Shown here: positions 5,611-56,710 of the stretch, piece by piece
Layout of the letters: the number at the start of each line of letters is the position of its first letter
Position numbering within the stretch: the stretch's first letter is position 1
Origin: a virus
Taxonomy: Duplodnaviria; Caudoviricetes
DNA length: 64,000 nucleotides
IMG/VR virus record: IMGVR_UViG_3300029305_011953
Coordinates: 1-64,000 of that record
Reading direction: 5' to 3' (one strand)
Position numbers and translations under genes: made by a program
Notes under the pieces: model-generated
The model's database searches: none
What the model saw: the letters and a program-made list of their open reading frames with translations, nothing else
What the model was told of the DNA's origin: nothing

Positions 5611-6744
5611 ATGAAAGGTTTATCGTTATTTGCCAATGCTGGAATCGCCGAAACTTTCTTAGCTGATGTCGGCGTTGATATAGTGGTTGCTAACGAATTA
5701 TTAGAGGAAAGAGCTGATTTTTATCGTCATTTATATCCGTCATGTGATATGATTCAAGGCGATATTACCAATTCTATTATTTTCAATAAAGTAATTACAA
5801 AATCAAAAGAACTTGGGGTTGAGTTTATAATTGCAACTCCACCTTGTCAAGGTATGAGTTATGCAGGACACAAAGACCCTAACGATGTTAGAAATGCGTT
5901 AATAACCTATGTTTTTGACGCAATTAGACAGCTGAATCCTAAGTATGTGCTTATCGAAAATGTTGTACCTCAATTGCAAACACCCGTAACATACGAGGGG
6001 AAAACAATGCTGATTCCAGATATGATTGATTATTTATTTGCGAGTAAGTACCAAATCAATAAGAATCATGTGCTGAATGTTGAAAATTTGGGTGTGCCTC
6101 AGAGCAGAAAAAGAGCTTTGTTTTTAATGGTTGATAAGTCGCTTAATCAGATATGGGAAATCCCCCAAGGCGATGGCACTATTGTTACATTGAGAGAAGC
6201 TATAGGTGATTTGCCTTCTCTCGATCCACCTATAAAAGAAAAAGGAATGACAGAAAAGATTTTTCCTAATTATGAAGAAAAAAAGAAGAGGGGGCTTGCC
6301 GTTTCAAAATGGCATATAGCTCGTCCACATGTTTGGCGAAATGTTGAGGTTATGATGCATACTCCAACTGGGAAATCTGCGAAAGAAAATCCCATTTATT
6401 ATCCGAAAAATAGAGACGGTCAAATGGTGGGTGGCTCTTGTTGTGCGTATAAGAGAATGGACTGGGATAAACCCGCCCCCACTGTGACCACCTACAATCA
6501 TACAATTTCATCTTTTCATAATGTTCATCCTGGTCATTTGGATGAAAAAACAGGATTGTATACCGATGCTAGAGTGTTGACTATTTTTGAATTGATGCGC
6601 GTAACTTCTTTGCCTGACGATTGGAATATTCCTGATTGGGCAAGTGAAAACTTGGTTAGAACAGTCATTGGTGAAGGTATCCCCCCGTTGGCAATAAAAA
6701 AGGTTGTAGCAGAGTTGGCTATTGTGAGAGAGGGGAAAAGATGA
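5611..6744 (+). CDS. DNA (cytosine-5)-methyltransferase M1
   Basis: Motif I LFANAG, IV TPPCQG, VI IENV, VIII PQSRKR, X IGEGIPP. Confidence 0.9.
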   Translation: MKGLSLFANAGIAETFLADVGVDIVVANELLEERADFYRHLYPSCDMIQGDITNSIIFNKVITKSKELGVEFIIATPPCQGMSYAGHKDPNDVRNALITYVFDAIRQLNPKYVLIENVVPQLQTPVTYEGKTMLIPDMIDYLFASKYQINKNHVLNVENLGVPQSRKRALFLMVDKSLNQIWEIPQGDGTIVTLREAIGDLPSLDPPIKEKGMTEKIFPNYEEKKKRGLAVSKWHIARPHVWRNVEVMMHTPTGKSAKENPIYYPKNRDGQMVGGSCCAYKRMDWDKPAPTVTTYNHTISSFHNVHPGHLDEKTGLYTDARVLTIFELMRVTSLPDDWNIPDWASENLVRTVIGEGIPPLAIKKVVAELAIVREGKR

Positions 6745-7874
6745 TTAAAGGTATATCTTTATTTTCAAATGTTGGCATAGCCGAAACTTATTTAAAAGAA
6801 GTAGGCATTGACATTGTTTTAGCCAATGAATTACTTGAAAAAAGAGCACTCTTTTATAAGCATCTTTACCCAGAGTGTGAGGTTGTAAATGGAGACATTA
6901 CAGACCCTGCTATTTTTGATAGTATTATTTCCAAGGCAAAAGAATTACAGGTTGAATTTCTTATTGCTACGCCTCCCTGTCAGGGGATGAGCATTGCTGG
7001 ACTGATGAATCCCTACGATGAAAGAAATAGCCTCGTAAAATATGCTATCGACGCTATCGAGATGATTCAGCCCAAATTTGTCTTGTTAGAAAATGTCCCT
7101 AGACAAATGGTTACGCCTATTTTTTATCAAGGTGAGGAGTTGTTAATCCCCGAATATATTATACGGAGATTGTCTAATTCGTACAATATTTGTATAGAGC
7201 CTCACATAAATGCAGCGGATTATGGTGTTCCACAAAGAAGAGAACGGGCCATTCTTTTAATGACTCGTAAAGATTGTAAAGAAATTTGGACATTCCCTGA
7301 AAAAGAAAACTCACACATAACGCTTGAAGTGGCATTTAAGGGTATACCTGACCTTTGGCCCGTAGTTAGAGATGCTGATTATGTGAGTGTATTGCCTGCG
7401 AACTCAAAGGAAGCGCTTTCTTTTCATAAGTGGCATGTCCCTCCCACACATTCATGGAGACACGTGTTATGTATGCTTTATACGCCGACAGGCAATACTG
7501 CTTTTGATAATGAATATTACTATCCCCGCAACAAAGATGGTTCGCGCATAAAGGGATATGATACAACTTATCATAGAATGTTTTGGGATAAACCTGCTCC
7601 AACAATAACTAGACACAATAGTGTAATAGGTTCGCAGAATAATGTTCATCCTGGTAGACCTTGGAAAAAGGATTCAGACGGAAATATGATGTATACGAAT
7701 CCTAGAGTATTAACTATTTACGAACTGATGGTTGCAAGCTCTTTGCCCACAGATTGGAATATACCCGAATGGGCATCGCATGAGCTTATAAGACAAGTTA
7801 TCGGTGAGGGTATTCCCCCACTGTTGATTAAAAAAATTGTACAAAGGTTGGGTATAATGAATGGCACGAAATAA
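6741..7874 (+). CDS. DNA (cytosine-5)-methyltransferase M2, paralogue of M1
   Basis: LFSNVG, TPPCQG, LENV, PQRRER, IGEGIPP; collinear with M1 over its whole length. Confidence 0.9.
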   Translation: MIKGISLFSNVGIAETYLKEVGIDIVLANELLEKRALFYKHLYPECEVVNGDITDPAIFDSIISKAKELQVEFLIATPPCQGMSIAGLMNPYDERNSLVKYAIDAIEMIQPKFVLLENVPRQMVTPIFYQGEELLIPEYIIRRLSNSYNICIEPHINAADYGVPQRRERAILLMTRKDCKEIWTFPEKENSHITLEVAFKGIPDLWPVVRDADYVSVLPANSKEALSFHKWHVPPTHSWRHVLCMLYTPTGNTAFDNEYYYPRNKDGSRIKGYDTTYHRMFWDKPAPTITRHNSVIGSQNNVHPGRPWKKDSDGNMMYTNPRVLTIYELMVASSLPTDWNIPEWASHELIRQVIGEGIPPLLIKKIVQRLGIMNGTK

Positions 7875-10611
7875 TATGAAAATTAATTTTCCCACAAATG
7901 TGGTTAACCCTATAACATATGCGACATATATGCAGATAATCGATTCTCAACCTGGTGGACAAGTAGATGCTGCGTATGCAGGCAATACCTTGTTCCCCAC
8001 AATGAAAAATGGCAAAGATGGGGCAGGAAAAAAAGATACTCATACCATCGGAGTGTTGATTGACTATGGATTAGCGCAATATGTTGATGATAAAAAGAAA
8101 ATTGTTGCATTGACGCACTTTGGGAAACGCTTTCTAGAGGTGTTTAAAAAAAGTTCTGATGAAGATTCTGGGCGGATGGAGAGAAAAACAGATGTAGACA
8201 TTAACTATAATGCTTTAATGTTGGAAATCCTCCTTAACTGGAAAGAAGCCGTTGGTGATAAAATTTTTTATCCAGGAGCTTTAATCATTCGTCTTTTAAT
8301 GGATGAACGTATGGAGTATAAATTTAATGCTTACGAATGGGAATTTATATGTGAAAACGTAAAATTCATAGAAACAAGTAACTATGATAAATTGGTAAGT
8401 GATGTTATTGAATTTAGAAAAAGCGGTCAAACCATTGATTTGAAGAAAGCGCATGACTTTTGTAACTCTTTGGCAAATTCCTGGGCGTTATTGATTAAGA
8501 ATGATGAAAAGTTTTATCTATTAAGAGAACTTACCAAAGAAAATATAAGAGACTGGCAAGCTAATAATAGGGATTTGGTTTATACAATGGGTACTATTTC
8601 CACACTGCGTGATAAAAATGTGCTACCCGAATCTTCGGATGTTTTTACTTTAATAAAGGAAAGATACAATACTGGTGATTATCCTCATCAAGACATAAAG
8701 GAATTAGAAAAAATATATTCAAACTTTAATGCATTATATGGCAAGGAGACCTTAAAGGCCCTTAAAGGCAAAGAACTCTTATACCGTATTTTTGGCACCA
8801 AGGCTCAAGATAATCTTTCTTTGACATATATAATTGAACGTGGGAAGGAATATGCTGACTTTGGTTCATGTAGGGGTGCGTATGGTTGGGCTAACGTCTT
8901 AACTTGCTTTCAAGGTAATCAATGGCAGTATTGTACTAGCGCATCGGATATAACAAATATTACCGAAGATGAGGCTATTGAAAAAGCAGAATTACTTATC
9001 AAAGCACTTGTGCGTTCCCTTGAAGTTATCGAGGAATACGAGGCTAAAAACAAGTTGTCGACCGTCGATGGGTACATTGAATTGGATGAAGAGTTAAAAA
9101 AGGTTTTAGGTGACCTTTATAACAAGCCGCGATTTAAGAAGCATTTAGCAATTCTGTATCCCCATCTTTTTATGAATATGTTTGACTATATTCTAAAAAA
9201 AGACGGTTGGCTGAATAGAATATTTAGCACCTTGCAACTTGAATTATCAGGCAATTGGTATACACAAAGCGGCAGATTTTCTGTTTTAGCAAAGGAATTA
9301 GGTATCCCCAATTTGGATTTATATCTTATTGTTAAAGCGTTGCTTGAAGAATCAGGTGAGGTTGAGGATGAGGTCGTAGGAGACGAAGACGATATGTTGG
9401 TGGATTATAAGGAAAACGAGAAAAGATTTAGAGAATGGATGGCTACACAAACCTCTCAGTCAGGAACATTGTGCAAGCCTGGTACGATTAGCAACAATTG
9501 TAGTGCCTTGAATAAGGTTTGCTCTATGATGGAAATTATCGAATACCCTGAGTTGGAGTCTATTTTCCAAATCGTTGATATTGATACTTTCAACGAAGTA
9601 AAAGGTATCATTAAGAGTCACCCCGATTACGAAGACGTGGACAAGGCTTGCAACAATAGATATTTGTCTTCGGGATTGAAGTGGTATGCTAAATATCTCG
9701 ATGAGCTTTTTGTGACAAAAGCGGTAGGAGAGGAGATTAAGGCAGACCCCTATGATAAAGCAAAGTTCCTTGCAGATGTATTTATGAGTCCAGAACAATA
9801 TGACCAATTAAAGCGACTTCTTTTCTATAAGAAAAATGTGATTTTGCAAGGTGCGCCAGGCGTTGGTAAAACGTATTTAGCAAGAAAACTTGCCCACTCT
9901 ATTATCGGCAAAAAAGACGATAGATACATTGAAATGGTGCAATTCCATCAAAATTATAGCTACGAAGATTTTATTATGGGTTATAAGCCTGTAGAGGATG
10001 GATTTGAACTTACAACGGGTGTTTTTTATAATTTCTGCAGGAAAGCTGAAGCTGAACCCGCAAGCAAATTCTTCTTTATTATCGATGAAATTAACAGAGG
10101 TAACCTTAGCAAAATTTTCGGGGAGCTTATGATGCTTATAGAAAGCGATAAGCGTGGTGCGAACAACAAGTTAAAACTTGCGTATAAAAACGAACTCTTT
10201 AGTGTTCCCGAAAATCTCTATATCATTGGTATGATGAATACAGCTGATAGAAGTTTGGCTATGATGGACTATGCATTGAGAAGAAGATTCTCTTTCTTTG
10301 ATGTTGTTCCTGCTTTTGGCAACGAATCGTTCAAGCAATATCTTTTGAAAAACATAGGTGTTTCCGTTGTCAATAAAGTTATTAGCCGTTTTAAGGAACT
10401 CAATGACAAAATTGCAGATGAAAGCACTTCAAATCTTGGTAAAGGCTATTGTATAGGTCATAGTTATTTTTGTATCGAACCCGTGGATGGTCAATCGGAC
10501 GAAGAATGGTATAGTTCTATTATTGAATACGAAATTGCTCCCTTGCTTTATGAGTATTGGTGGGATGATAAGGATAAAGCCGATGAGTGCATTAAGGCAT
10601 TAAAGGCATAA
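7861..10611 (+). CDS. mcrB: McrB-family AAA+ GTPase restriction subunit with long N-terminal extension
   Basis: Walker A GAPGVGKT, Walker B FIIDEINRGN, McrB signature MNTADRS, QFHQNYSYEDF. Confidence 0.9.
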   Translation: MARNNMKINFPTNVVNPITYATYMQIIDSQPGGQVDAAYAGNTLFPTMKNGKDGAGKKDTHTIGVLIDYGLAQYVDDKKKIVALTHFGKRFLEVFKKSSDEDSGRMERKTDVDINYNALMLEILLNWKEAVGDKIFYPGALIIRLLMDERMEYKFNAYEWEFICENVKFIETSNYDKLVSDVIEFRKSGQTIDLKKAHDFCNSLANSWALLIKNDEKFYLLRELTKENIRDWQANNRDLVYTMGTISTLRDKNVLPESSDVFTLIKERYNTGDYPHQDIKELEKIYSNFNALYGKETLKALKGKELLYRIFGTKAQDNLSLTYIIERGKEYADFGSCRGAYGWANVLTCFQGNQWQYCTSASDITNITEDEAIEKAELLIKALVRSLEVIEEYEAKNKLSTVDGYIELDEELKKVLGDLYNKPRFKKHLAILYPHLFMNMFDYILKKDGWLNRIFSTLQLELSGNWYTQSGRFSVLAKELGIPNLDLYLIVKALLEESGEVEDEVVGDEDDMLVDYKENEKRFREWMATQTSQSGTLCKPGTISNNCSALNKVCSMMEIIEYPELESIFQIVDIDTFNEVKGIIKSHPDYEDVDKACNNRYLSSGLKWYAKYLDELFVTKAVGEEIKADPYDKAKFLADVFMSPEQYDQLKRLLFYKKNVILQGAPGVGKTYLARKLAHSIIGKKDDRYIEMVQFHQNYSYEDFIMGYKPVEDGFELTTGVFYNFCRKAEAEPASKFFFIIDEINRGNLSKIFGELMMLIESDKRGANNKLKLAYKNELFSVPENLYIIGMMNTADRSLAMMDYALRRRFSFFDVVPAFGNESFKQYLLKNIGVSVVNKVISRFKELNDKIADESTSNLGKGYCIGHSYFCIEPVDGQSDEEWYSSIIEYEIAPLLYEYWWDDKDKADECIKALKA

Positions 10612-10618
10612 AAGGAAG

Positions 10619-11704
10619 ATGGTTATGAGCAACATAAAGACACCAATTCCCATAAAGAATTTGTTTTATATGCTTTGCTATGCTTGGGATATTCTTGCTA
10701 TTAAGGATGATATACTTGTAGATTCCGATGATTTTGATGATGCGTATAATCTTTTGGCACGTGTTTTTTCGCACGGCATTGGTAAGATAATTCGGTCTGG
10801 TTTTCATCGTTCATACATATCAAAGGAAGAAGAATTATCAACAGTTAGAGGAAAAATCAATATTCAAGAAAGCATTAACAGGCTTTCTATGCATCGAAAA
10901 CAGTTGATGTGTTCATATGATGAGTATTCTACTGATGATATTTTCAACAAAATCCTAAATTATACTATCGCAGCATTAATTAAGAATCCAAATGTAGATA
11001 TTTCTATTAAACGACAATTGAAAAAACAAAAAATGTTCTTTGTTGGGATTGGCGAAACACCGCCCACAAAAGCAAATAGGAAAAAGATTAGTTTTAATAG
11101 AAATAATGTCATTTATAAAATGCTTATACGTGTTGCTATAATGATATATGACAATACCACCGTAAGCGAAGAGGACGGCAAGGAAATATTCAAAGACTTC
11201 TTTAGAGAAGAGCAAATGCAAAAAGTATATGAAACTTTTTTGCTAAATTTTTATGCGATGCACCTTGATAAAAATATATACCGTGTACATGCCCCTAAAT
11301 TTACCTGGATAAAATCAGAGGTTGAGGATATTTGGGATGAATATGAGGATGCCGATAGTTATATGCCAGAATTACGAAGTGATATTGTAATAGAAAACAA
11401 ACAAAAAGACATACAGTTTATCATTGATGCTAAATATTATAAAGAGGCTCTGGTTAAATCCCACCATAGCAATGCGAAAAAATTTAGAAGAGACCACATC
11501 TCTCAAGTAATGACTTATATGATTAATAGCACTTATTCAGGGACAAAGCGTGGTGCTCTGTTATATCCTACCGTTTGTGACGTGCTTGATGGCAAACAAA
11601 ATATTGCAACTGGTATGGTGTTTTTCAAGAGTGTAAATCTTGATACAGCTTGGCGAAATATAGAGAGTCAGTTGCTTGCTTTTGCAAGAATAGCTGATCA
11701 ATAA
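10619..11704 (+). CDS. mcrC: McrC-family PD-(D/E)XK nuclease subunit
   Basis: IPIKNLFYMLCYAW N-terminus, ELRSDIVI...IIDAKYY; directly follows the McrB-like gene. Confidence 0.85.
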   Translation: MVMSNIKTPIPIKNLFYMLCYAWDILAIKDDILVDSDDFDDAYNLLARVFSHGIGKIIRSGFHRSYISKEEELSTVRGKINIQESINRLSMHRKQLMCSYDEYSTDDIFNKILNYTIAALIKNPNVDISIKRQLKKQKMFFVGIGETPPTKANRKKISFNRNNVIYKMLIRVAIMIYDNTTVSEEDGKEIFKDFFREEQMQKVYETFLLNFYAMHLDKNIYRVHAPKFTWIKSEVEDIWDEYEDADSYMPELRSDIVIENKQKDIQFIIDAKYYKEALVKSHHSNAKKFRRDHISQVMTYMINSTYSGTKRGALLYPTVCDVLDGKQNIATGMVFFKSVNLDTAWRNIESQLLAFARIADQ

Positions 11705-25706: not shown

Positions 25707-25735
25707 TTGACAAGATAAAAAAATGTGGATATAAT
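25707..25735 (+). promoter_or_regulatory. Perfect consensus sigma70/A promoter of the nucleotidyltransferase moron
   Basis: TTGACA (25707-25712), 17 bp, TATAAT (25730-25735). Confidence 0.85.
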
Positions 25736-25795
25736 ACTATGATTTAGTGCAGAAAGTGCTAAATGGGTGGCTTGGGAAACAAGGAGTTTTGTATT

Positions 25796-26446
25796 ATGTA
25801 CCACTATATCGAAGACAAAGAATTTTTGAAGAGAATGCGTAGCCTGTGCGCCGACATTATTAACCAGTTGGTTCAAAAAATCAACAGGGAAGGAAAAATG
25901 ACGGTTGAAGCTCACCTTGTTGGTAGCGGGGCGAGAAATATGGAAACGCAAAATGCCAATCAACCCGTTGACCTTGACTATAACCTTTGGGTCTATAAGT
26001 GCGATGATATAAATGATTGTCGTGCAATCAAAGAATACGTGAGAAAAACTTTCAATAAGGTGTTGAAAGCAAATGGTTGGTCTGACTGCGAGGATTCAAC
26101 TTCTTCCTTAACGACGGAAAGAAGACACTTCACGAAAGGAAATCAAACGGAATTTAGTATCGACCTTGCTATTGTTGCAGAAGGGCGCACAGACAACTGG
26201 TATCGACTTATCCATAAGAAGACGGGATATGTGCAGAGGGATGAATATTGGTGGCAAGAAGCACCACATTCCGATGGGCTGCGAGATAAGGTTGACGATT
26301 TAAAAGACAATGATTTGTGGCTTGAGGTTCGTCAAACCTATCTCGACAAGAAAAATATGTATTTGAGAAGGCAGGATAAAAACCATCCTTCTTTCAACGT
26401 GTACATAGAATCGGTAAATGAAGTTTACTATAAGCATTTTAGATAA
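25796..26446 (+). CDS. Pol-beta-superfamily nucleotidyltransferase, cGAS/DncV (CD-NTase/SMODS)-like
   Basis: LVGSGARN...VDLDYNL (GS...DxD), DSTSSLT strand, FSIDLAIV third Asp; AAGGAG RBS. Confidence 0.65.
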   Translation: MYHYIEDKEFLKRMRSLCADIINQLVQKINREGKMTVEAHLVGSGARNMETQNANQPVDLDYNLWVYKCDDINDCRAIKEYVRKTFNKVLKANGWSDCEDSTSSLTTERRHFTKGNQTEFSIDLAIVAEGRTDNWYRLIHKKTGYVQRDEYWWQEAPHSDGLRDKVDDLKDNDLWLEVRQTYLDKKNMYLRRQDKNHPSFNVYIESVNEVYYKHFR

Positions 26447-26463
26447 AAATAAATAATTGACGG

Positions 26464-26491
26464 AACCGTCCTGTAAAAGGGGCGGTTTTTT
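26464..26491 (+). terminator. Intrinsic terminator closing the nucleotidyltransferase moron
   Basis: aaccgtcc...gggcggtt stem plus T run. Confidence 0.7.
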
Positions 26492-26511
26492 CATGCCAAA
26501 AAGGAGGAATA

Positions 26512-27789
26512 ATGGCGAGAACAACGACAGAAATGCAACTGATCGAACTCTCGAAATTGGTCCCGTATGTCAATAACGCACGAACGCACTCGGTGGAGCA
26601 GATAAACAAACTTCGGTCGAGTCTTCGTGAGTTTGGTTTTATTAACCCAGTCATTATTGACAAGGACTACGGCATCATCGCGGGACACGGTCGTGTGATT
26701 GCAGCGAGAGAAGAAGGTATTGAAAAAGTGCCTTGCGTGTTGGTGGATTATCTCACGGAGGCACAGAAGAAAGCGTACATTTTGGCTGACAACCGTATGG
26801 CTTTGGATGCAGGATGGGATGAAGAACTTCTGCGTGTGGAAATCGAGGCTTTGCAAGGCGAGAACTTTGACGTTGGTTTGACGGGTTTTGATGAAAAGGA
26901 ACTTGCAGACCTCTTCAAAGGGGAAGATAAGGAAATCGAAGATGACGATTTTGACTTAACCGCCGCCCTTGAAAAAGCATCGTTTGTACAAAGGGGCGAT
27001 GTTTGGACGGTGGGACGGCATAGGCTCGTGTGCGGTGATGCGACCAATGCCGACGACGTGAAAACCTTAATGGACGGCAAACGCGCCAACCTCATTCTGA
27101 CAGATCCGCCGTATGGCGTTTCCTTTAAGAGTAAGAGTGGCTTGACTATCCAAAACGACAGTATGAAGGACGATGAGTTCTATCAATTCTTATATAAAGC
27201 CTTCGTGAATATGGCGGAAAATTTAGAGCCAGGCGGTTCTGCTTATGTTTTCCACGCCGACACCGAAGGCTTAAAGTTTAGAAAGGCGTTTATTGATGCA
27301 GGTTTCCACCTTGCCGGTGTTTGCATTTGGGCGAAGAATAGCCTTGTCCTTGGCAGGTCGGATTATCAATGGCAACACGAACCCGTTTTATACGGCTTTT
27401 TGCAGAACGGCAAGCATAAGTGGTATTCGGATAGAAAGCAGACGACCATTTGGAACTTTAACAAGCCTAAACGCAATGAAAATCATCCCACGAGTAAGCC
27501 ACTTGACTTGCTCGGCTATGCGTTGAAGAACTCTTCGCAGGAAAATGCTATTGTTGTGGATACGTTCGGCGGAAGTGGTTCTACGCTTATGGCGTGCGAG
27601 GGGATGAATCGTATCTGCTATACCATTGAACTTGACGAAAAGTACGCATCCGTTATTCTTCGTCGATATGTCGAGGATACTGGCAATGCAGATGGAGTCT
27701 TCGTGGTGCGAGATGGTAAGCAAATCCCGTATGCCGACCTTGTAAAAGAAGTGCAAGGCAGAAACAGCAATGCGGATAGCGATAATTGA
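26512..27789 (+). CDS. ParB-like domain + N6-adenine/N4-cytosine DNA methyltransferase (beta class)
   Basis: PYVNNARTHS..GFINPVII..IIAGHGR ParB domain; TDPPY; HPTSKP; DTFGGSGST. Confidence 0.9.
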   Translation: MARTTTEMQLIELSKLVPYVNNARTHSVEQINKLRSSLREFGFINPVIIDKDYGIIAGHGRVIAAREEGIEKVPCVLVDYLTEAQKKAYILADNRMALDAGWDEELLRVEIEALQGENFDVGLTGFDEKELADLFKGEDKEIEDDDFDLTAALEKASFVQRGDVWTVGRHRLVCGDATNADDVKTLMDGKRANLILTDPPYGVSFKSKSGLTIQNDSMKDDEFYQFLYKAFVNMAENLEPGGSAYVFHADTEGLKFRKAFIDAGFHLAGVCIWAKNSLVLGRSDYQWQHEPVLYGFLQNGKHKWYSDRKQTTIWNFNKPKRNENHPTSKPLDLLGYALKNSSQENAIVVDTFGGSGSTLMACEGMNRICYTIELDEKYASVILRRYVEDTGNADGVFVVRDGKQIPYADLVKEVQGRNSNADSDN

Positions 27790-28861
27790 TGCGGATTTAA
27801 TCGGTCGTAAAAAACATAGGTTTCCAAATTTGGCGTGTATGAAGATATCCGCTTTTCATAAAAATCAAGGGGACAGCGTAGAACTAAAAACAGATTACAA
27901 CGGTTTATCGGAGTACGACAAAATATATCTGTCAAAGGTATTCACGGACACGGTAGTCCCTAACGAGGTTTTAAGTTTGGAAAATCTTTCATTCGGCGGG
28001 ACGGGTTTCTTTTATGATAAAGCACCTCCCTTGCCGGAGGAAGTGGAACATCAAAAGCCAGATTATCACTTGTATGATGCTTGGGTTGATGAACAACTTC
28101 GTGCCGGTGGTAAAGAGCGCGATTTTTCCTATTACCGTGATTATTCGATAGGTTTCTTAACGAGAGGCTGTTTCCGCAAATGCGAGTTCTGCGTGAATAG
28201 AAATTATAAGCGGGTATTAAAGCACAGCCCCATAGAAGAATTCCTGGATGAAACACGACCGAAAATATGCTTGCTCGACGATAATTTCCTTGGGTATCCT
28301 TGTTGGAAAGAAATGTTGCTTGAATTACAAAGCAGAGGAAAGCCATTCCAGTTCAAACAAGGGTTGGATGAAAGGCTTTTGACCGATGAGTCGTGTTCCA
28401 TTTTATTCTGTAGTAAATACGACGGCGATTATATTTTTGCATTCGATAACGTGGCGGACAAGGAAATCATCGAAAGAAAGATTAAACTTGCACGGAAGTA
28501 CACGACCGCCGCCTTGAAATTTTATTGTTTCTGCGGTTTCGATCGTGAAGGAAAATGGGATGACGGTTTTTGGCGAGAAGATATTTTTGACCTTTTCAAA
28601 AGAATAGAAATTCTCGCTTGTTATGGCTGCGTTCCATACGTGATGAGGTACGCTCGATATGTGGAAAGTCCGTATCGAGGGTTGTATATTACGATTGCAC
28701 GGTGGTGCAATCAACCGAATTTTTTCAAAAAGAAAAGTTTGCGTGAATTTGCGGAAGCGAATGGGCGAACAAGTGCTTGTTACAGGTATATGCGTGACTT
28801 CGAGAATGCTTTCCCAGAAGTCGCTTTTTATTTGGATATGAAATATTGTCCGTCCAAGTAA
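27770..28861 (+). CDS. Radical-SAM-like protein
   Basis: RGCFRKCEFC (CxxxCxxC), LLDDNF; N-terminal FPNLACMKIS..HK..GD.V. Confidence 0.75.
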   Translation: MRIAIIDADLIGRKKHRFPNLACMKISAFHKNQGDSVELKTDYNGLSEYDKIYLSKVFTDTVVPNEVLSLENLSFGGTGFFYDKAPPLPEEVEHQKPDYHLYDAWVDEQLRAGGKERDFSYYRDYSIGFLTRGCFRKCEFCVNRNYKRVLKHSPIEEFLDETRPKICLLDDNFLGYPCWKEMLLELQSRGKPFQFKQGLDERLLTDESCSILFCSKYDGDYIFAFDNVADKEIIERKIKLARKYTTAALKFYCFCGFDREGKWDDGFWREDIFDLFKRIEILACYGCVPYVMRYARYVESPYRGLYITIARWCNQPNFFKKKSLREFAEANGRTSACYRYMRDFENAFPEVAFYLDMKYCPSK

Positions 28862-52585: not shown

Positions 52586-52752
52586 TGGAAAATCAAGAGA
52601 ATATTTTAAGATATACCTTGGCGGTAACAATGGCAGAATCGATGCTTGAAAAGGGTATTATTTCCAAGGACGATTATAATAAAATTGAACAGAAATTTTG
52701 CGAAAAATATTGTATCAATTTATCGTCTATATTCCGCAAAATCGCTGGATAA
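52582..52752 (+). CDS. 56-aa SHOCT-like protein (not in the ORF track)
   Basis: Translated by hand: MMENQENILRYTLAVTMAESMLEKGIISKDDYNKIEQKFCEKYCINLSSIFRKIAG; ATGA overlap with upstream gene. Confidence 0.65.
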   Translation: MMENQENILRYTLAVTMAESMLEKGIISKDDYNKIEQKFCEKYCINLSSIFRKIAG

Positions 52753-52794
52753 TATTCTCTTTTAGAGGTAATATACACATACCAAAAAAGGAGG
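52737..52794 (+). repeat. Repeated promoter/RBS element, copy C, upstream of the recombinases
   Basis: caaaatcgctggata...ttttagaggtaatatacacatac...aaggagg. Confidence 0.7.
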
Positions 52795-52799
52795 GTATT

Positions 52800-54080
52800 A
52801 TGGCAAGAATTGTTCAAGTAATTCAACCTACGAAAAACATAGGAATTGAATATTTGAATGTTTGTGCGTATGCGAGAGTTTCAAGTGGAAAAGATGCAAT
52901 GATGCATTCGCTTTCCGCGCAAATCAGCTATTACCAAACATACATTCAAAGAAAGCAAAACTGGCGTTTCCGTGGGGTATATGCGGACGAGGCAATTTCG
53001 GGGACGAAAGACAACCGTGAATGCTTTAATGCAATGCTTGAAGAGTGCCGAAAGGGGCATATTGATTTAATTGTTACGAAGTCAATTTCAAGATTTGCAA
53101 GAAACACGATTACGCTTTTGGAAACGATACGAGAGTTAAAGGATATAGGTGTTAACGTTTACTTTGAAGAACAGAACATCAACACCCTTTCGGCGGAAGG
53201 GGAAGTGCTTTTGACTTTGTTGGCATCCTACGCACAGGAAGAAGCTCGTTCGGCAAGCGAAAATCAAAAATGGAGAGTGCTGTTGAATTTCAAACAAGGT
53301 AAACCTTGGTGTTGCACTATGTTTGGATATCGTCACGAAAAGGGGAAGTTTTATATCGTCGAGCGTGAGGCAGAAATCATTCGATGGATTTATAAATCTT
53401 ACCTTGAAGGGCGTGGAACGACAGCAATCTCTAATGACCTCGCCGCTTATGGGGAAGTTGGTAGGAAGGGGCATTTATTTTCAAAAGGTTCAGTTATGAA
53501 AATTCTTCGGAATTATGCTTATACGGGAAACTTGATACTTCAAACGACCTATCGAGAAAACTATATGACAAAGGTTCGTAAAAAGAATGAAGGTCAACTT
53601 CCAATGTACCAGGCAGAAGATACGCACGAGCCGATTATAGACCTTGCTACTTTTAAGGAAGTACAAGCAGAAATTGCTCGGCGGAAAGAAGAGTTTGCGC
53701 CAAAAAAAGAAAAGGGCAGGTATGCGTTCACGGGGTTAATCAAGTGCGAAAACTGCGGAAAGGGATTTAGGCGCAAGACGACGGCAACCAGAGTTGTTTG
53801 GATATGCTCGACCTTCAATACAAGGGGAAAGATGTATTGCCATGCAAAACAAATCCCCGAAGAAACGCTTGAGAAATTAACGGCGGATTTAGACCTTTCG
53901 ACCGTAAAAGAAATCAGGGCGGCGGAAGGGAATAAACTAACCTTTGTTTTTAAAGACGGAAAGGAAGAAATACGGTATTGGAAAGACCGTTCGAGAAGTG
54001 AGTCTTGGACGGAAGAAAAACGGAAAAAAGCAAGTGAAGACGCATATAGGAGGGAATATAAATGCCGAAAGTTACAATAA
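52800..54080 (+). CDS. Large serine recombinase 1
   Basis: AYARVSS, KSISRFARN, recombinase domain, CENC..C..C Zn ribbon. Confidence 0.9.
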   Translation: MARIVQVIQPTKNIGIEYLNVCAYARVSSGKDAMMHSLSAQISYYQTYIQRKQNWRFRGVYADEAISGTKDNRECFNAMLEECRKGHIDLIVTKSISRFARNTITLLETIRELKDIGVNVYFEEQNINTLSAEGEVLLTLLASYAQEEARSASENQKWRVLLNFKQGKPWCCTMFGYRHEKGKFYIVEREAEIIRWIYKSYLEGRGTTAISNDLAAYGEVGRKGHLFSKGSVMKILRNYAYTGNLILQTTYRENYMTKVRKKNEGQLPMYQAEDTHEPIIDLATFKEVQAEIARRKEEFAPKKEKGRYAFTGLIKCENCGKGFRRKTTATRVVWICSTFNTRGKMYCHAKQIPEETLEKLTADLDLSTVKEIRAAEGNKLTFVFKDGKEEIRYWKDRSRSESWTEEKRKKASEDAYRREYKCRKLQ

Positions 54081-55645
54081 TACCAGCAACAAGAGATTTC
54101 CATACAGGAAACCTTAAAAACGATTTGAGAAAAAAGCGAGTGGCTGCCTATGCTCGTGTTTCCACGAATAGCGAAGAACAACAGACTTCCTATGAGGCGC
54201 AAGTAGATTATTATACCAAATACATCAAAAGCAGACCCGATTGGGAGTTTGTTGATGTTTATACAGATGAAGGTATAACCGCAACCAACACAAAAAAGCG
54301 TGAAGGCTTTAAGGAAATGGTGGAAAACGCCCTTGCGGGAAACATAGACCTAATCATCACAAAATCGGTCAGTCGATTTGCGAGAAATACGGTTGACAGC
54401 TTAACGACGATCCGTAAGTTGAAAGACAAGGGTATTGAAGTTTTCTTTGAAAAGGAAAATATTTATACCTTGGATAGCAAGGGGGAGTTGGTATTAACAA
54501 TTATGAGTTCCCTTGCCCAGGAAGAAAGCAGAAGTATTTCGGAAAACGTAACTTGGGGCAGAAGAAAGCAATTCGCCGACGGGAATGTCTGCTTGCCCTA
54601 TAAACATTTCCTTGGATATAAAAAGGGCGAAGACGGCAAACCAGAAGTTGTTCCTGCAGAGGCGGCGATTATACGATTGATTTATATGCTTTTCCTTGAA
54701 GGGAAAACGCCAGGGGCGATTGCGGATTACTTAACGGAACAAGGCTTTCCCACGCCGACAAATAAAAGTAAGGTGTGGCACTTGAAAACGGTAGAGAGTA
54801 TTCTCACGAACGAAAAATACAAAGGTTCGGCAATTCTGCAAAAGAAGTACACCGTCAATTATTTGGAAAAGAAAATGGCGGTAAACGACGGGCAAGTTCC
54901 TAAATATTACATTGAAGAAAGCCACGAGGCGATTATCCCCCCTGGCGAGTTTGAAATGGTACAAGAAGAAATGAAACGCCGCAAAAGTTTATCGAGAAAA
55001 TATAGTGGTTCAACCTTGTTTGCATCAAAGATTATTTGTGGAGATTGCGGTTCGTATTTTGGCGCAAAGGTGTGGCATTCAAATACAGAATACCGTCGAG
55101 TGATTTATCGATGTAATGAAAAATACGAGAAGAAAGGCGCACCCAGGTGTTCGACGAGCCATCTTTCCGAAGACGAAATTAAGAACGGTTTTGTACGAGC
55201 GTTGAATATTTTGATTAACGAAAAGCAAGTAGTGTTGGATGATTGCAGATTACTATTTGATACGCTGACGGAAACAACGGAATTGGATGCACAAATTGAA
55301 ATGCAAATGGCAGAGCGAGAATATGCTATGGAAATTTTGAAGAAATGCGTTGAGGATAATGCGATAAAAGAGCAGAGTCAATTAGAATATTGGAAACGCT
55401 ACGATGCCCTTGCGGAACGTTACGAGGCGGAAAAGAATAAACTTGAAAAACTCCTTGCTTTAAAAGAAGAACGCAAGCACAAGGCGGAATTGATAGGCGC
55501 GTTTATGTTTGAGTTAAGCGAAATGGACGGAATAATTGAGAATTTCGATGCTCGGCTTTGGTTTTTCACGGTTGAAAGAGTGGTTGTTACCGAAGGCAAG
55601 AAAATGACATTTGAAATGAGAAACGGTGCAAAAATTGCCGTGTGA
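54062..55645 (+). CDS. Large serine recombinase 2
   Basis: AYARVST, KSVSRFARN, CGDC..C..C, long coiled coil. Confidence 0.92.
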   Translation: MPKVTIIPATRDFHTGNLKNDLRKKRVAAYARVSTNSEEQQTSYEAQVDYYTKYIKSRPDWEFVDVYTDEGITATNTKKREGFKEMVENALAGNIDLIITKSVSRFARNTVDSLTTIRKLKDKGIEVFFEKENIYTLDSKGELVLTIMSSLAQEESRSISENVTWGRRKQFADGNVCLPYKHFLGYKKGEDGKPEVVPAEAAIIRLIYMLFLEGKTPGAIADYLTEQGFPTPTNKSKVWHLKTVESILTNEKYKGSAILQKKYTVNYLEKKMAVNDGQVPKYYIEESHEAIIPPGEFEMVQEEMKRRKSLSRKYSGSTLFASKIICGDCGSYFGAKVWHSNTEYRRVIYRCNEKYEKKGAPRCSTSHLSEDEIKNGFVRALNILINEKQVVLDDCRLLFDTLTETTELDAQIEMQMAEREYAMEILKKCVEDNAIKEQSQLEYWKRYDALAERYEAEKNKLEKLLALKEERKHKAELIGAFMFELSEMDGIIENFDARLWFFTVERVVVTEGKKMTFEMRNGAKIAV

Positions 55646-55714: not shown

Positions 55715-56710
55715 TTATAAATCGTCAATAGAACTTTGGAACGGAAAGGAAGGTTCGATTGCATCCGTATCATCTTCGTCGTCTTCATCTGCATCGCCTT
55801 CATCGATTTCGTCAACATCTTCTGTGGTAATATCTTCCTTTTCCGTGTCATCATCGGGGTTGAAAGAGGGCGAATAGTGGTTTTCTTCGTCTTCATCATC
55901 CAAACCTTCTGCATCGTAGCCTTTTGCGTAGAGCATACCAATAGGTAATCGGAATAAGTCGCTTTTCTTCTTTCCGTTATAAATTATTACCATTGCTTCT
56001 GCATATCCAAGGGTGCCAGAACGTCTTTCCTTGGCGGTTCGCGCAATGGTTTTTATGGATACTGCGCCTAATTTTTCCTTAAAAATCTCGTCATCCAAAC
56101 GGTCTCGGTAGGTATTGACAAGTTTTGCAACCGCCCTTAAAACATTTGCAGAAAGGGAATTAGAATCGCCTTCCCACGCCGCAATAACCAAACGAAGCGT
56201 GCGATTAAGGGTTTGATAACCATATTTAGTATAAATGGATTCCAATGATGAGATTGCACAAATAACGCCAGGAGCCTTTGTTAAACCGATGGTAAGGTTG
56301 TAAGATTCGACCAAATCTCGTATTAAGAGCTGTTGGTGGTTTCCCGCCTCAAGGTGCGCCATGAAGATTTCATAAGGGAGCAGGGGTTTAACGAATTTCT
56401 GCTGATTGGCAAAGATGTCGGCTTCGTTTTGATATTCGAGATCGTCATAAACCATGCACCATACAGGGGTTTCGCGAGAACCCGAAACACGTGCAATAAT
56501 CTCGATGGTATGCTGTCCGTTGAAAACATAGTTAATTCCGTCACGCTTACTAACTTTTACGGGATTGATTTGGTTAAGGTCGAAGTTTTCTGCGGCCTTT
56601 TCAATATGAGCAATCGAAAGATTTCTTTGATAATCTTGGTTCGATACAAGGTCTTTAATGGGAATAAGTTCAAAATGAACTTGTGGCACGTACATACTAT
56701 AATCACTCAT
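55715..56710 (-). CDS. DUF6551-like ParB/Srx-fold protein with acidic tail
   Basis: NQDYQRNL, INPVKVS, VFNGQHT (DGQHR-like), EADIF. Confidence 0.7.
   Translation of the reverse strand: MSDYSMYVPQVHFELIPIKDLVSNQDYQRNLSIAHIEKAAENFDLNQINPVKVSKRDGINYVFNGQHTIEIIARVSGSRETPVWCMVYDDLEYQNEADIFANQQKFVKPLLPYEIFMAHLEAGNHQQLLIRDLVESYNLTIGLTKAPGVICAISSLESIYTKYGYQTLNRTLRLVIAAWEGDSNSLSANVLRAVAKLVNTYRDRLDDEIFKEKLGAVSIKTIARTAKERRSGTLGYAEAMVIIYNGKKKSDLFRLPIGMLYAKGYDAEGLDDEDEENHYSPSFNPDDDTEKEDITTEDVDEIDEGDADEDDEDDTDAIEPSFPFQSSIDDL

Follow-up and report, generated by a model that had tools for sequence, protein, structure and literature searches.

What would a cGAS/DncV-like nucleotidyltransferase (CD-NTase) do for a phage when no effector gene adjoins it? 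The question is raised by the IMG/VR record IMGVR_UViG_3300029305_011953 (Caudoviricetes), the first 64,000 nucleotides of which were analysed here and are called the window below. Positions 25707–26491 of the window hold a cassette of about 785 bp on the + strand, which consists of a promoter, a leader RNA, a 216-aa gene and a terminator; an original prediction, made from the letters alone, had delimited the same span, and it does run from promoter to terminator. To our knowledge, the bacterial cGAS-like enzymes characterised so far all share an operon with an effector. The answer that we tentatively favour is that this gene encodes a predicted active miniature enzyme of CD-NTase fold that would make a small nucleotide product, with its output set by the leader, and that would act as cargo in mobile-element conflict with no linked effector.

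The structural evidence for the enzyme assignment comes from an AlphaFold2 model built on the family alignment, which reached a pLDDT (predicted local distance difference test) of 96.4. The modelled protein (P0001, encoded at 25796–26446, + strand) consists of a long N-terminal helix, a five-stranded nucleotidyltransferase (NTase) core and three C-terminal helices (residues 162–215). In a Foldseek search against the PDB, the top 20 matches were all CD-NTases (DwCdnB, ClCdnE, EcCdnC, BfCdnB, DncV and CdnG), with an E of 1.6e-7 for DwCdnB and a TMq of 0.63 for BfCdnB, followed by more CD-NTases, cGAS and MiD51. An independent VIA-align search of 48,161 representative chains placed CD-NTases at 15 of the top 16 positions (Z 10.6–12.9, 182–195 residues aligned), with cGLR/cGAS/OAS at Z of about 10–11 and poly(A) polymerases and terminal uridylyltransferases (TUTases) at about 9. 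The BFVD library of viral folds returned one uncharacterised giant-virus protein and nothing informative. Among the matches listed, the structure search that had been proposed as a check gave no grouping with antibiotic- or tRNA-modifying NTases. Specifically, the protein shares with the CD-NTases of the cyclic oligonucleotide-based anti-phage signalling system (CBASS), namely CdnB, CdnC, CdnD, CdnE, CdnG and DncV, and with cGAS, cGLR and OAS, the spine helix, the Pol-beta core and the first C-lobe helices. The expectation that it would prove shorter than CD-NTases was also borne out: its 216 aa compare with 272–374 aa in the matched chains, and it is shorter than every CD-NTase aligned. The structural alignments end at about residue 206 of 290 in BfCdnB and 260 of 374 in CdnG, leaving roughly 85–150 residues of the CD-NTase C-lobe with no counterpart in the model.

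The sequence carries the catalytic motifs of this fold. As originally read, the translation of 25796–26446 contains the GS pair (G43-S44), the DxD motif (D59-L-D61) and a third aspartate (D123, in SIDLAIV), and these GS and DxD...D motifs are those of CD-NTases and cGAS. Across an alignment of 62 members (29–73% identity), G43 is invariant, while S44, N53, D59, D61, S101, D123, R137, K142, W153, K186, N187, S199, E205 and N208 are at least 90% conserved. Judged from the alignment, this conservation is the pattern of an active enzyme. The PADLOC CBASS cyclase model PDLC00795 matched residues 13–172 over profile positions 25–174 of 340 (E 7e-8); the same model matched 13 of the 62 diverse members, and a few single members matched other cyclase models. 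The sole non-cyclase PADLOC match was a weak one to CARF/PD-(D/E)xK (E 2.7e-4) in one member of the 62. In an hhalign comparison with a single bona fide SMODS/DncV-like cyclase (L194, encoded next to SAVED), the GS, DxD and third aspartate fell in register, and the nearest named cluster in the ESM Atlas was SMODS at 0.86, which is a lead only. The family comprises 1831 clusters at 90% identity and 674 representatives at 50%, 384 of which have an E below 1e-10, and nearly all members are 210–235 aa long. A PHROGs scan of the protein gave nothing meaningful, and literature searches returned no description of this protein family; this large family is without an entry in Pfam, NCBIfam or PHROGs, and its leader without one in Rfam.

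The gene sits in a unit that was inserted as a whole. Its SigA/sigma-70-type promoter, TTGACA-17-TATAAT (25707–25735; −35 at 25707–25712, −10 at 25730–25735), matches the consensus at 12 of 12 positions with a 17-nt spacer; the 64 kb contain no second perfect site, and 0.02 would be expected by chance. A promoter matching at least 10 of 12 positions and ending 54–60 nt 5' of the ATG was present at 70 of 83 homologous loci, compared with 5 of 83 shuffled controls. At the other end lies an intrinsic terminator (26458–26493), a G+C-rich hairpin followed by a U6 run (−18.4 kcal/mol, z −3.98); none of 200 shuffles folded equally well, and it was this folding against shuffles that recovered the terminator, which a simple consensus scan did not list. 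On the left the cassette is flanked by phage metK (24644–25678, + strand; S-adenosylmethionine synthetase, with all three S-AdoMet synthetase Pfam domains), and on the right by a ParB_N-fused N6/N4 DNA methylase (26512–27789, + strand; PF02195 and PF01555). The own promoter, own terminator and position between metK and the ParB-methylase that the original prediction had described are therefore all present.

Sister phages show what the locus looks like without the cassette. Copies of the ParB-methylase with 75–84% identity occur on 80 viral contigs, and on the four closest of these that bear metK (L094, L095, L096 and L098) the two genes are 9–15 nt apart, compared with 833 nt here. In addition, the G+C content drops from 0.45–0.50 in the flanks to 0.37–0.40 in the cassette. 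The cassette is thus a true moron, as had been supposed, inserted between genes that abut in sister phages. Morons, as described in the lambdoid-phage literature, are promoter-gene-terminator units in the late operons of temperate phages, and the present unit agrees with them in its own promoter and terminator, its insertion between genes adjacent in relatives and its atypical, lower G+C composition. It differs from them in that it also circulates outside phages and carries a conserved structured leader. A related phage (L118, 4100–5000) holds a 31%-identical NTase between terS and a ParB-methylase gene; this family member comes with a promoter of its own, a terminator and the leader motif seen here, and it was inserted at this hot spot independently.

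The transcribed leader is conserved, although the proteins are just 50–70% identical. Its layout is GAU, a hairpin of 7–9 bp, UGGGYGGCAUGGG, about 5 nt, AGGAG, 7–12 nt and AUG, with the hairpin starting 1–2 nt past the predicted transcription start. In the window, the hairpin at the predicted mRNA 5' end spans 25742–25764 (arms 25742–25750 and 25756–25764, loop AGAAA) and is also found in the minimum-free-energy fold; the G-rich box (G-box) UGGGUGGCUUGGG (25764–25776) stands between the hairpin and the Shine-Dalgarno sequence AAGGAG (25781–25786), which lies 9 nt 5' of the ATG and is kept in the leader alignment. In 69 leaders, 91.6% of the alignment cells in the hairpin pair, compared with 26–43% when the partner is slid, and changes on both sides were counted in 116 cells, compared with 3–16 in the slid controls (for example, AUUUAG/CUAAAU versus AUACAG/CUGUAU). 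G-U wobbles occupy 42 cells in seven pairs, whereas A-C combinations occupy 6 cells, typed for the inner five pairs only. Since the wobbles outnumber the A-C cells, a + strand RNA is favoured and a DNA palindrome or operator is disfavoured. These comparisons indicate that the leader is under selection for structure. In the G-box, conservation across the 69 leaders is at least 90% at the UGG, GG and UGGG positions, and the box is kept in paralogues at 31–44% protein identity.

The leader is tied to this gene family. A covariance model built from the 69 leaders gave 74 matches in 1.04 Mb, all of them directly 5' of an NTase gene, and the leader was found at 16 of 16 loci outside model building, including the paralogues at 31–44% identity; the search found none at a 29%-identical outlier. 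Among 141 genomes of one order, leader and protein co-occur in one and the same genome at the same two places. The 16 loci outside model building also include second, divergent paralogue copies of 209 and 217 aa in two genomes, G001 and G002 (L092, at G001:C1:464259-464982, and L093, on the − strand of G002:C10). The leader-gene link is exclusive in these data. No match to the leader (25736–25795) was returned by Rfam 15 at E up to 10, in which it differs from small riboswitches.

The position of the leader bears on the start codon. An in-frame ATG at 25763, within the G-box, leads gene callers to give forms of 227–231 aa for P0001 and many relatives. We rejected the 227-aa form, and with it the idea that the G-box is an N-terminal coding extension, since the G-box-to-ATG distance falls in frames 0, 1 and 2 at 23, 23 and 18 loci, respectively, and stop codons lie between G-box and ATG at 5 of the 23 in-frame loci. 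With no frame preference and with stop codons in this stretch, the conserved start is 25796. The N-terminus that follows reads M-Y-x-Y (25796–25807) family-wide, with M1 at least 90% conserved and Y2 and Y4 the majority residues; Hailong HalB, for comparison, primes synthesis from tyrosine (PMC13434031).

Several functions can be considered for the leader. It resembles aprE/ermC-type 5' stabiliser stem-loops in that the hairpin lies 1–2 nt from the predicted start and is followed by a strong Shine-Dalgarno sequence; in Firmicutes, a 5'-terminal hairpin with a strong Shine-Dalgarno sequence protects mRNAs from 5'-end-dependent decay by RNase J. The G-box, however, is nearly invariant. Stabilisation does not account for this, and the box may instead bind a protein or a ligand, or take part in a G-quadruplex together with the Shine-Dalgarno sequence. 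A G-quadruplex appeared in the minimum-energy fold of 2 of 66 leaders at default parameters. In L092, the G-box by itself contains four G tracts (UGGGUGGGUGGAUUGGG), as in textbook sequences that form G-quadruplexes. When the G-box was paired over long range with codons 9–25, the energy was modestly better than for control segments (−11.4 compared with −8.5 kcal/mol); the position of this pairing was inconsistent and we make no claim for it. No conserved small open reading frame (ORF) of the ribosome-stalling attenuation type was found in the leader. Together, the pattern of leader conservation points to post-transcriptional control or mRNA stabilisation, and it does not support the earlier view of a simply constitutive gene.

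The cassette is mobile. We found relatives of 51–100% identity at 80 genome loci, in Lachnospiraceae, Oscillospiraceae, Acutalibacteraceae, other Clostridia, Acholeplasmatales, Anaeroplasma, Metamycoplasma faucium and one metagenome-assembled genome (MAG) of Melainabacteria; a 100%-identical copy is on the host contig of a Eubacteriales MAG, and wild deer and Hadza people are among the sources of the samples that contain the family. Its distribution in gut Clostridia and Mollicutes is sporadic, with 1 of 141 genomes positive in the one order sampled. For 756 of 763 locus pairs, DNA similarity does not extend beyond the interval from about −60/−90 to +642, counted from the ATG, which makes the promoter-leader-gene cassette the unit that moves. 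Chromosomes, integrative elements and islands hold most copies, and the viral carriers amount to about 13–14 IMG/VR contigs and 2 of 50,697 GenBank phage records; the gene is therefore not specific to phages. In two further contexts, the gene stands alone in a chromosome or adjoins an integrase/relaxase element.

No partner travels with it. As the original prediction had stated, no transmembrane, nuclease, patatin or TIR effector adjoins the gene, and none was present among the other window ORFs scanned (some small ORFs fell outside the scan). We further clustered all ORFs within 5 kb of the gene at 82 other loci; the commonest neighbour was a large serine recombinase, at just 7 of the 82, followed by relaxase-like, DUF5688, single-stranded DNA-binding protein (SSB) and GmrSD-like genes of integrative elements. 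No recurring partner or linked effector emerged, no neighbour cluster being present at more than seven loci. The CBASS arrangement of a cyclase beside its effector was not seen, the neighbours here being metK and methylases, and HEPN or AbiEi partners, as in MNT-HEPN and AbiEii modules, did not recur in the 82 loci, nor were there PADLOC matches to those families. Fusions to large domains are essentially absent: four singletons with longer fused forms (Eco57I, HsdR, recombinase) are probably assembly or gene-calling artefacts, and some members carry short, variable C-terminal additions. On a small divergent branch that retains the leader, at 32–35% protein identity, a PIN7 domain is fused to the NTase in one case (L188, 482–1537), while a 32%-identical relative (L189, 408–1495) has a separate 112-aa PIN7 gene directly 3' of the NTase. 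PIN7 is a possible effector or partner in this branch only. None was found in this window, at the other family loci searched or in the host genome of this provirus, and PIN7 as a universal unlinked partner was rejected, since it is present in 2 of 5 NTase-bearing genomes and the host of the provirus lacks it.

Other features of the window are as follows. Two C5 cytosine methylases stand in tandem at 5611–6744 and 6741–7874 of the same provirus, followed by genes for an McrB-like AAA_5 protein (7861–10611) and then an McrC-family protein (10619–11704); the block at 5611–11704 looks like methylation-dependent restriction cargo next to its own methylases. A 363-aa ORF with no Pfam match (27770–28861) overlaps the 3' end of the ParB-methylase gene, and 71%-identical copies of it occur in 2 of the 80 sister phages (L106 and L142). 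The regions 52698–55645 and 58846–61477 hold two large serine recombinases in tandem on the + strand and, past a DUF6551 gene (55718–56710), two further genes with resolvase domains on the − strand. These recombinase and resolvase genes suggest an integration module adjoining a second element, nested or adjacent.

We propose the following tentative mechanism. In a temperate phage of Clostridia, the unit of about 785 bp inserted between the metK and ParB-methylase genes would produce an enzyme, presumed active, that joins nucleoside triphosphates into a small product, whether an oligonucleotide (linear or cyclic) or a nucleotidyl adduct. The leader would set mRNA stability and/or translation, such that output is regulated rather than simply constitutive. 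The cassette would then serve conflicts between mobile elements and hosts, for instance by protecting the lysogen from superinfection, acting through a genetically unlinked target or through the enzyme's own activity. The roles first put forward in the original prediction (toxin, decoy synthase or signal for an unlinked effector) are conjectural. A more specific version of the mechanism, which we regard as speculative and unlikely, is that leader and mini-enzyme form one RNA-protein device in which the leader senses a nucleotide signal or the enzyme itself, giving a self-regulating signalling or immune module with no linked effector. The leader would in that case be a new small riboswitch or protein-binding element, possibly with a two-tier G-quadruplex to which both the G-box and the Shine-Dalgarno sequence contribute G tracts.

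Some of the data weigh against this mechanism. The complete C-terminal helical lobe that closes the two-nucleotide pocket was not found in the 216-aa protein. In CD-NTases the C-lobe helps to cage the two nucleotides, and cyclisation may therefore not be possible in an enzyme in which most of this lobe is absent. Pfam (including SMODS PF18144 and DncV-like PF21654) and NCBIfam gave no match even at E up to 10, so that the comparison with CD-NTase and SMODS families that had been called for came out divided, with the PADLOC cyclase match on one side and no Pfam SMODS/DncV match on the other. Neither the protein nor the family profile drew more than chance matches from the PDB sequences, and the hhalign probability against the L194 cyclase was just 2.8%. 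A search for SAVED in five host genomes was silent, but its control was equally silent. On the side of the leader, thermodynamic folding gave a mean probability of 0.60 for an unpaired Shine-Dalgarno sequence, which does not support its masking; burial of the ribosome-binding site by the leader is thus not confirmed for this subfamily. Going by the model, the original cGAS/DncV-like assignment is firm at the level of fold, with weak backing from cyclase hidden Markov models, and it is weak at the level of sequence, with one defining structural feature missing.

The shortened C-lobe also bears on what the enzyme might act upon. NTases of the MenT/AbiEii type add nucleotides to RNA 3' ends, tRNA or protein, and P0001 might likewise be a macromolecule-directed toxin or abortive-infection effector whose synthesis the leader holds low until a trigger. 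We consider this unlikely. In its favour, a reduced C-lobe should open the active-site cleft, as in polymer-acting enzymes, poly(A) polymerases and TUTases score just about 3 Z-units below CD-NTases, the gene is solitary on mobile elements under tight leader control, and the divergent branch is paired with or fused to an RNase-type PIN7 domain. The best structural matches, however, are consistently CD-NTases rather than MenT/AbiEii, CCA-adding enzymes or TUTases, no antitoxin-like partner recurs at the 82 loci, and a perfect consensus promoter would be an odd choice for a toxin. The genomic setting has suggested to us a counter-defence role, in which a decoy or competing nucleotide, or a modified host signal, would weaken signalling by CBASS, Thoeris or type III CRISPR-like systems. 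The cassette is carried by phages, by relaxase/serine-recombinase integrative elements and in islands, it sits here in a block expected to counter restriction (metK, ParB-methylase and C5-methylase), and L118 acquired a divergent member in a separate insertion, at its equivalent terS/ParB-methylase junction. This role nevertheless appears rather doubtful: promoter-terminator units within late operons are classically genes expressed in the lysogen to the benefit of the host, the small numbers of GenBank phage records and IMG/VR contigs with homologues given above speak against it, and literature searches gave no anti-defence enzyme of such a kind.

A stand-alone, self-promoted, leader-bearing cassette on recombinase/relaxase elements across phyla in animal guts also resembles a resistance gene, and P0001 might on that account be a new small-molecule (antibiotic) NTase spreading in gut Firmicutes and Mollicutes, with the leader as an inducible attenuator. 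We hold this to be improbable, given that NCBIfam returned no match, that the family occurs in the wild deer and Hadza samples and that the leader lacks the conserved small ORF of ribosome-stalling attenuation; the lincosamide and aminoglycoside NTase structures looked for were outside the top 50 VIA-align matches. The lack of a partner, the lack of a known product and the patchy distribution, already evident from the 141 genomes of one order, would also fit a protein without catalytic activity or with a regulatory role alone, or a selfish cassette of no benefit to its carrier. This is very improbable, as conservation across hundreds of clusters reaches at least 90% at the catalytic residues and at about 20 further positions, and the leader is under selection for structure. 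The reading that we tentatively retain is that of a regulated, predicted active mini-enzyme making a small nucleotide product.

These findings matter for two reasons. On the protein side, these mini-enzymes retain the catalytic core but have lost the greater part of the C-lobe; they have no fixed partner, and their promoter-leader-gene unit moves among phages, integrative elements and gut-bacterial chromosomes. If the enzyme makes a signal, this would mean immune or counter-immune signalling with unlinked receptors, or else a new single-gene mechanism. On the RNA side, the leader of about 45 nt, with its clear covariation and nearly invariant G-box, is a good candidate for a new class of regulatory RNA, and it offers an experimental handle on the timing of enzyme synthesis.

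Comparison with known systems places the cassette apart from each of them. Relative to the CD-NTases of CBASS, the mini-enzyme lacks most of the C-lobe and a Pfam SMODS/DncV match, and it has no effector, Cap2/Cap3 or HORMA genes nearby and a dedicated RNA leader instead. The closest concept is Panoptes, where OptS/mCpol is likewise a stripped-down version of a large immune nucleotide synthase, set here against a self-promoted mini-synthase; it is reported to be a mini Cas10-palm cyclase that makes an inhibitory signal constitutively and is active without a partner sensor (PMC12657218, PMC12657230; PMC13434031). The likeness is one of concept only, since OptS/mCpol has a GGDEF/Cas10 palm and not a Pol-beta core, and it always stands in an operon with a 2TM effector, which the mini-enzyme family does not. 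Hailong HalB and the Clover enzyme are NTases, as is the present protein, and make DNA or dinucleotide signals that regulate an immune effector (PMC13434031, PMC12265719). Unlike the mini-enzyme family, which has no linked effector, they belong to two-gene operons with HalA or a dGTPase, and neither was among the top structural matches of the mini-enzyme in Foldseek or VIA-align. By analogy, Panoptes/mCpol, Hailong and Clover may be regarded as conceptual neighbours of this cassette, all of them with a linked effector.

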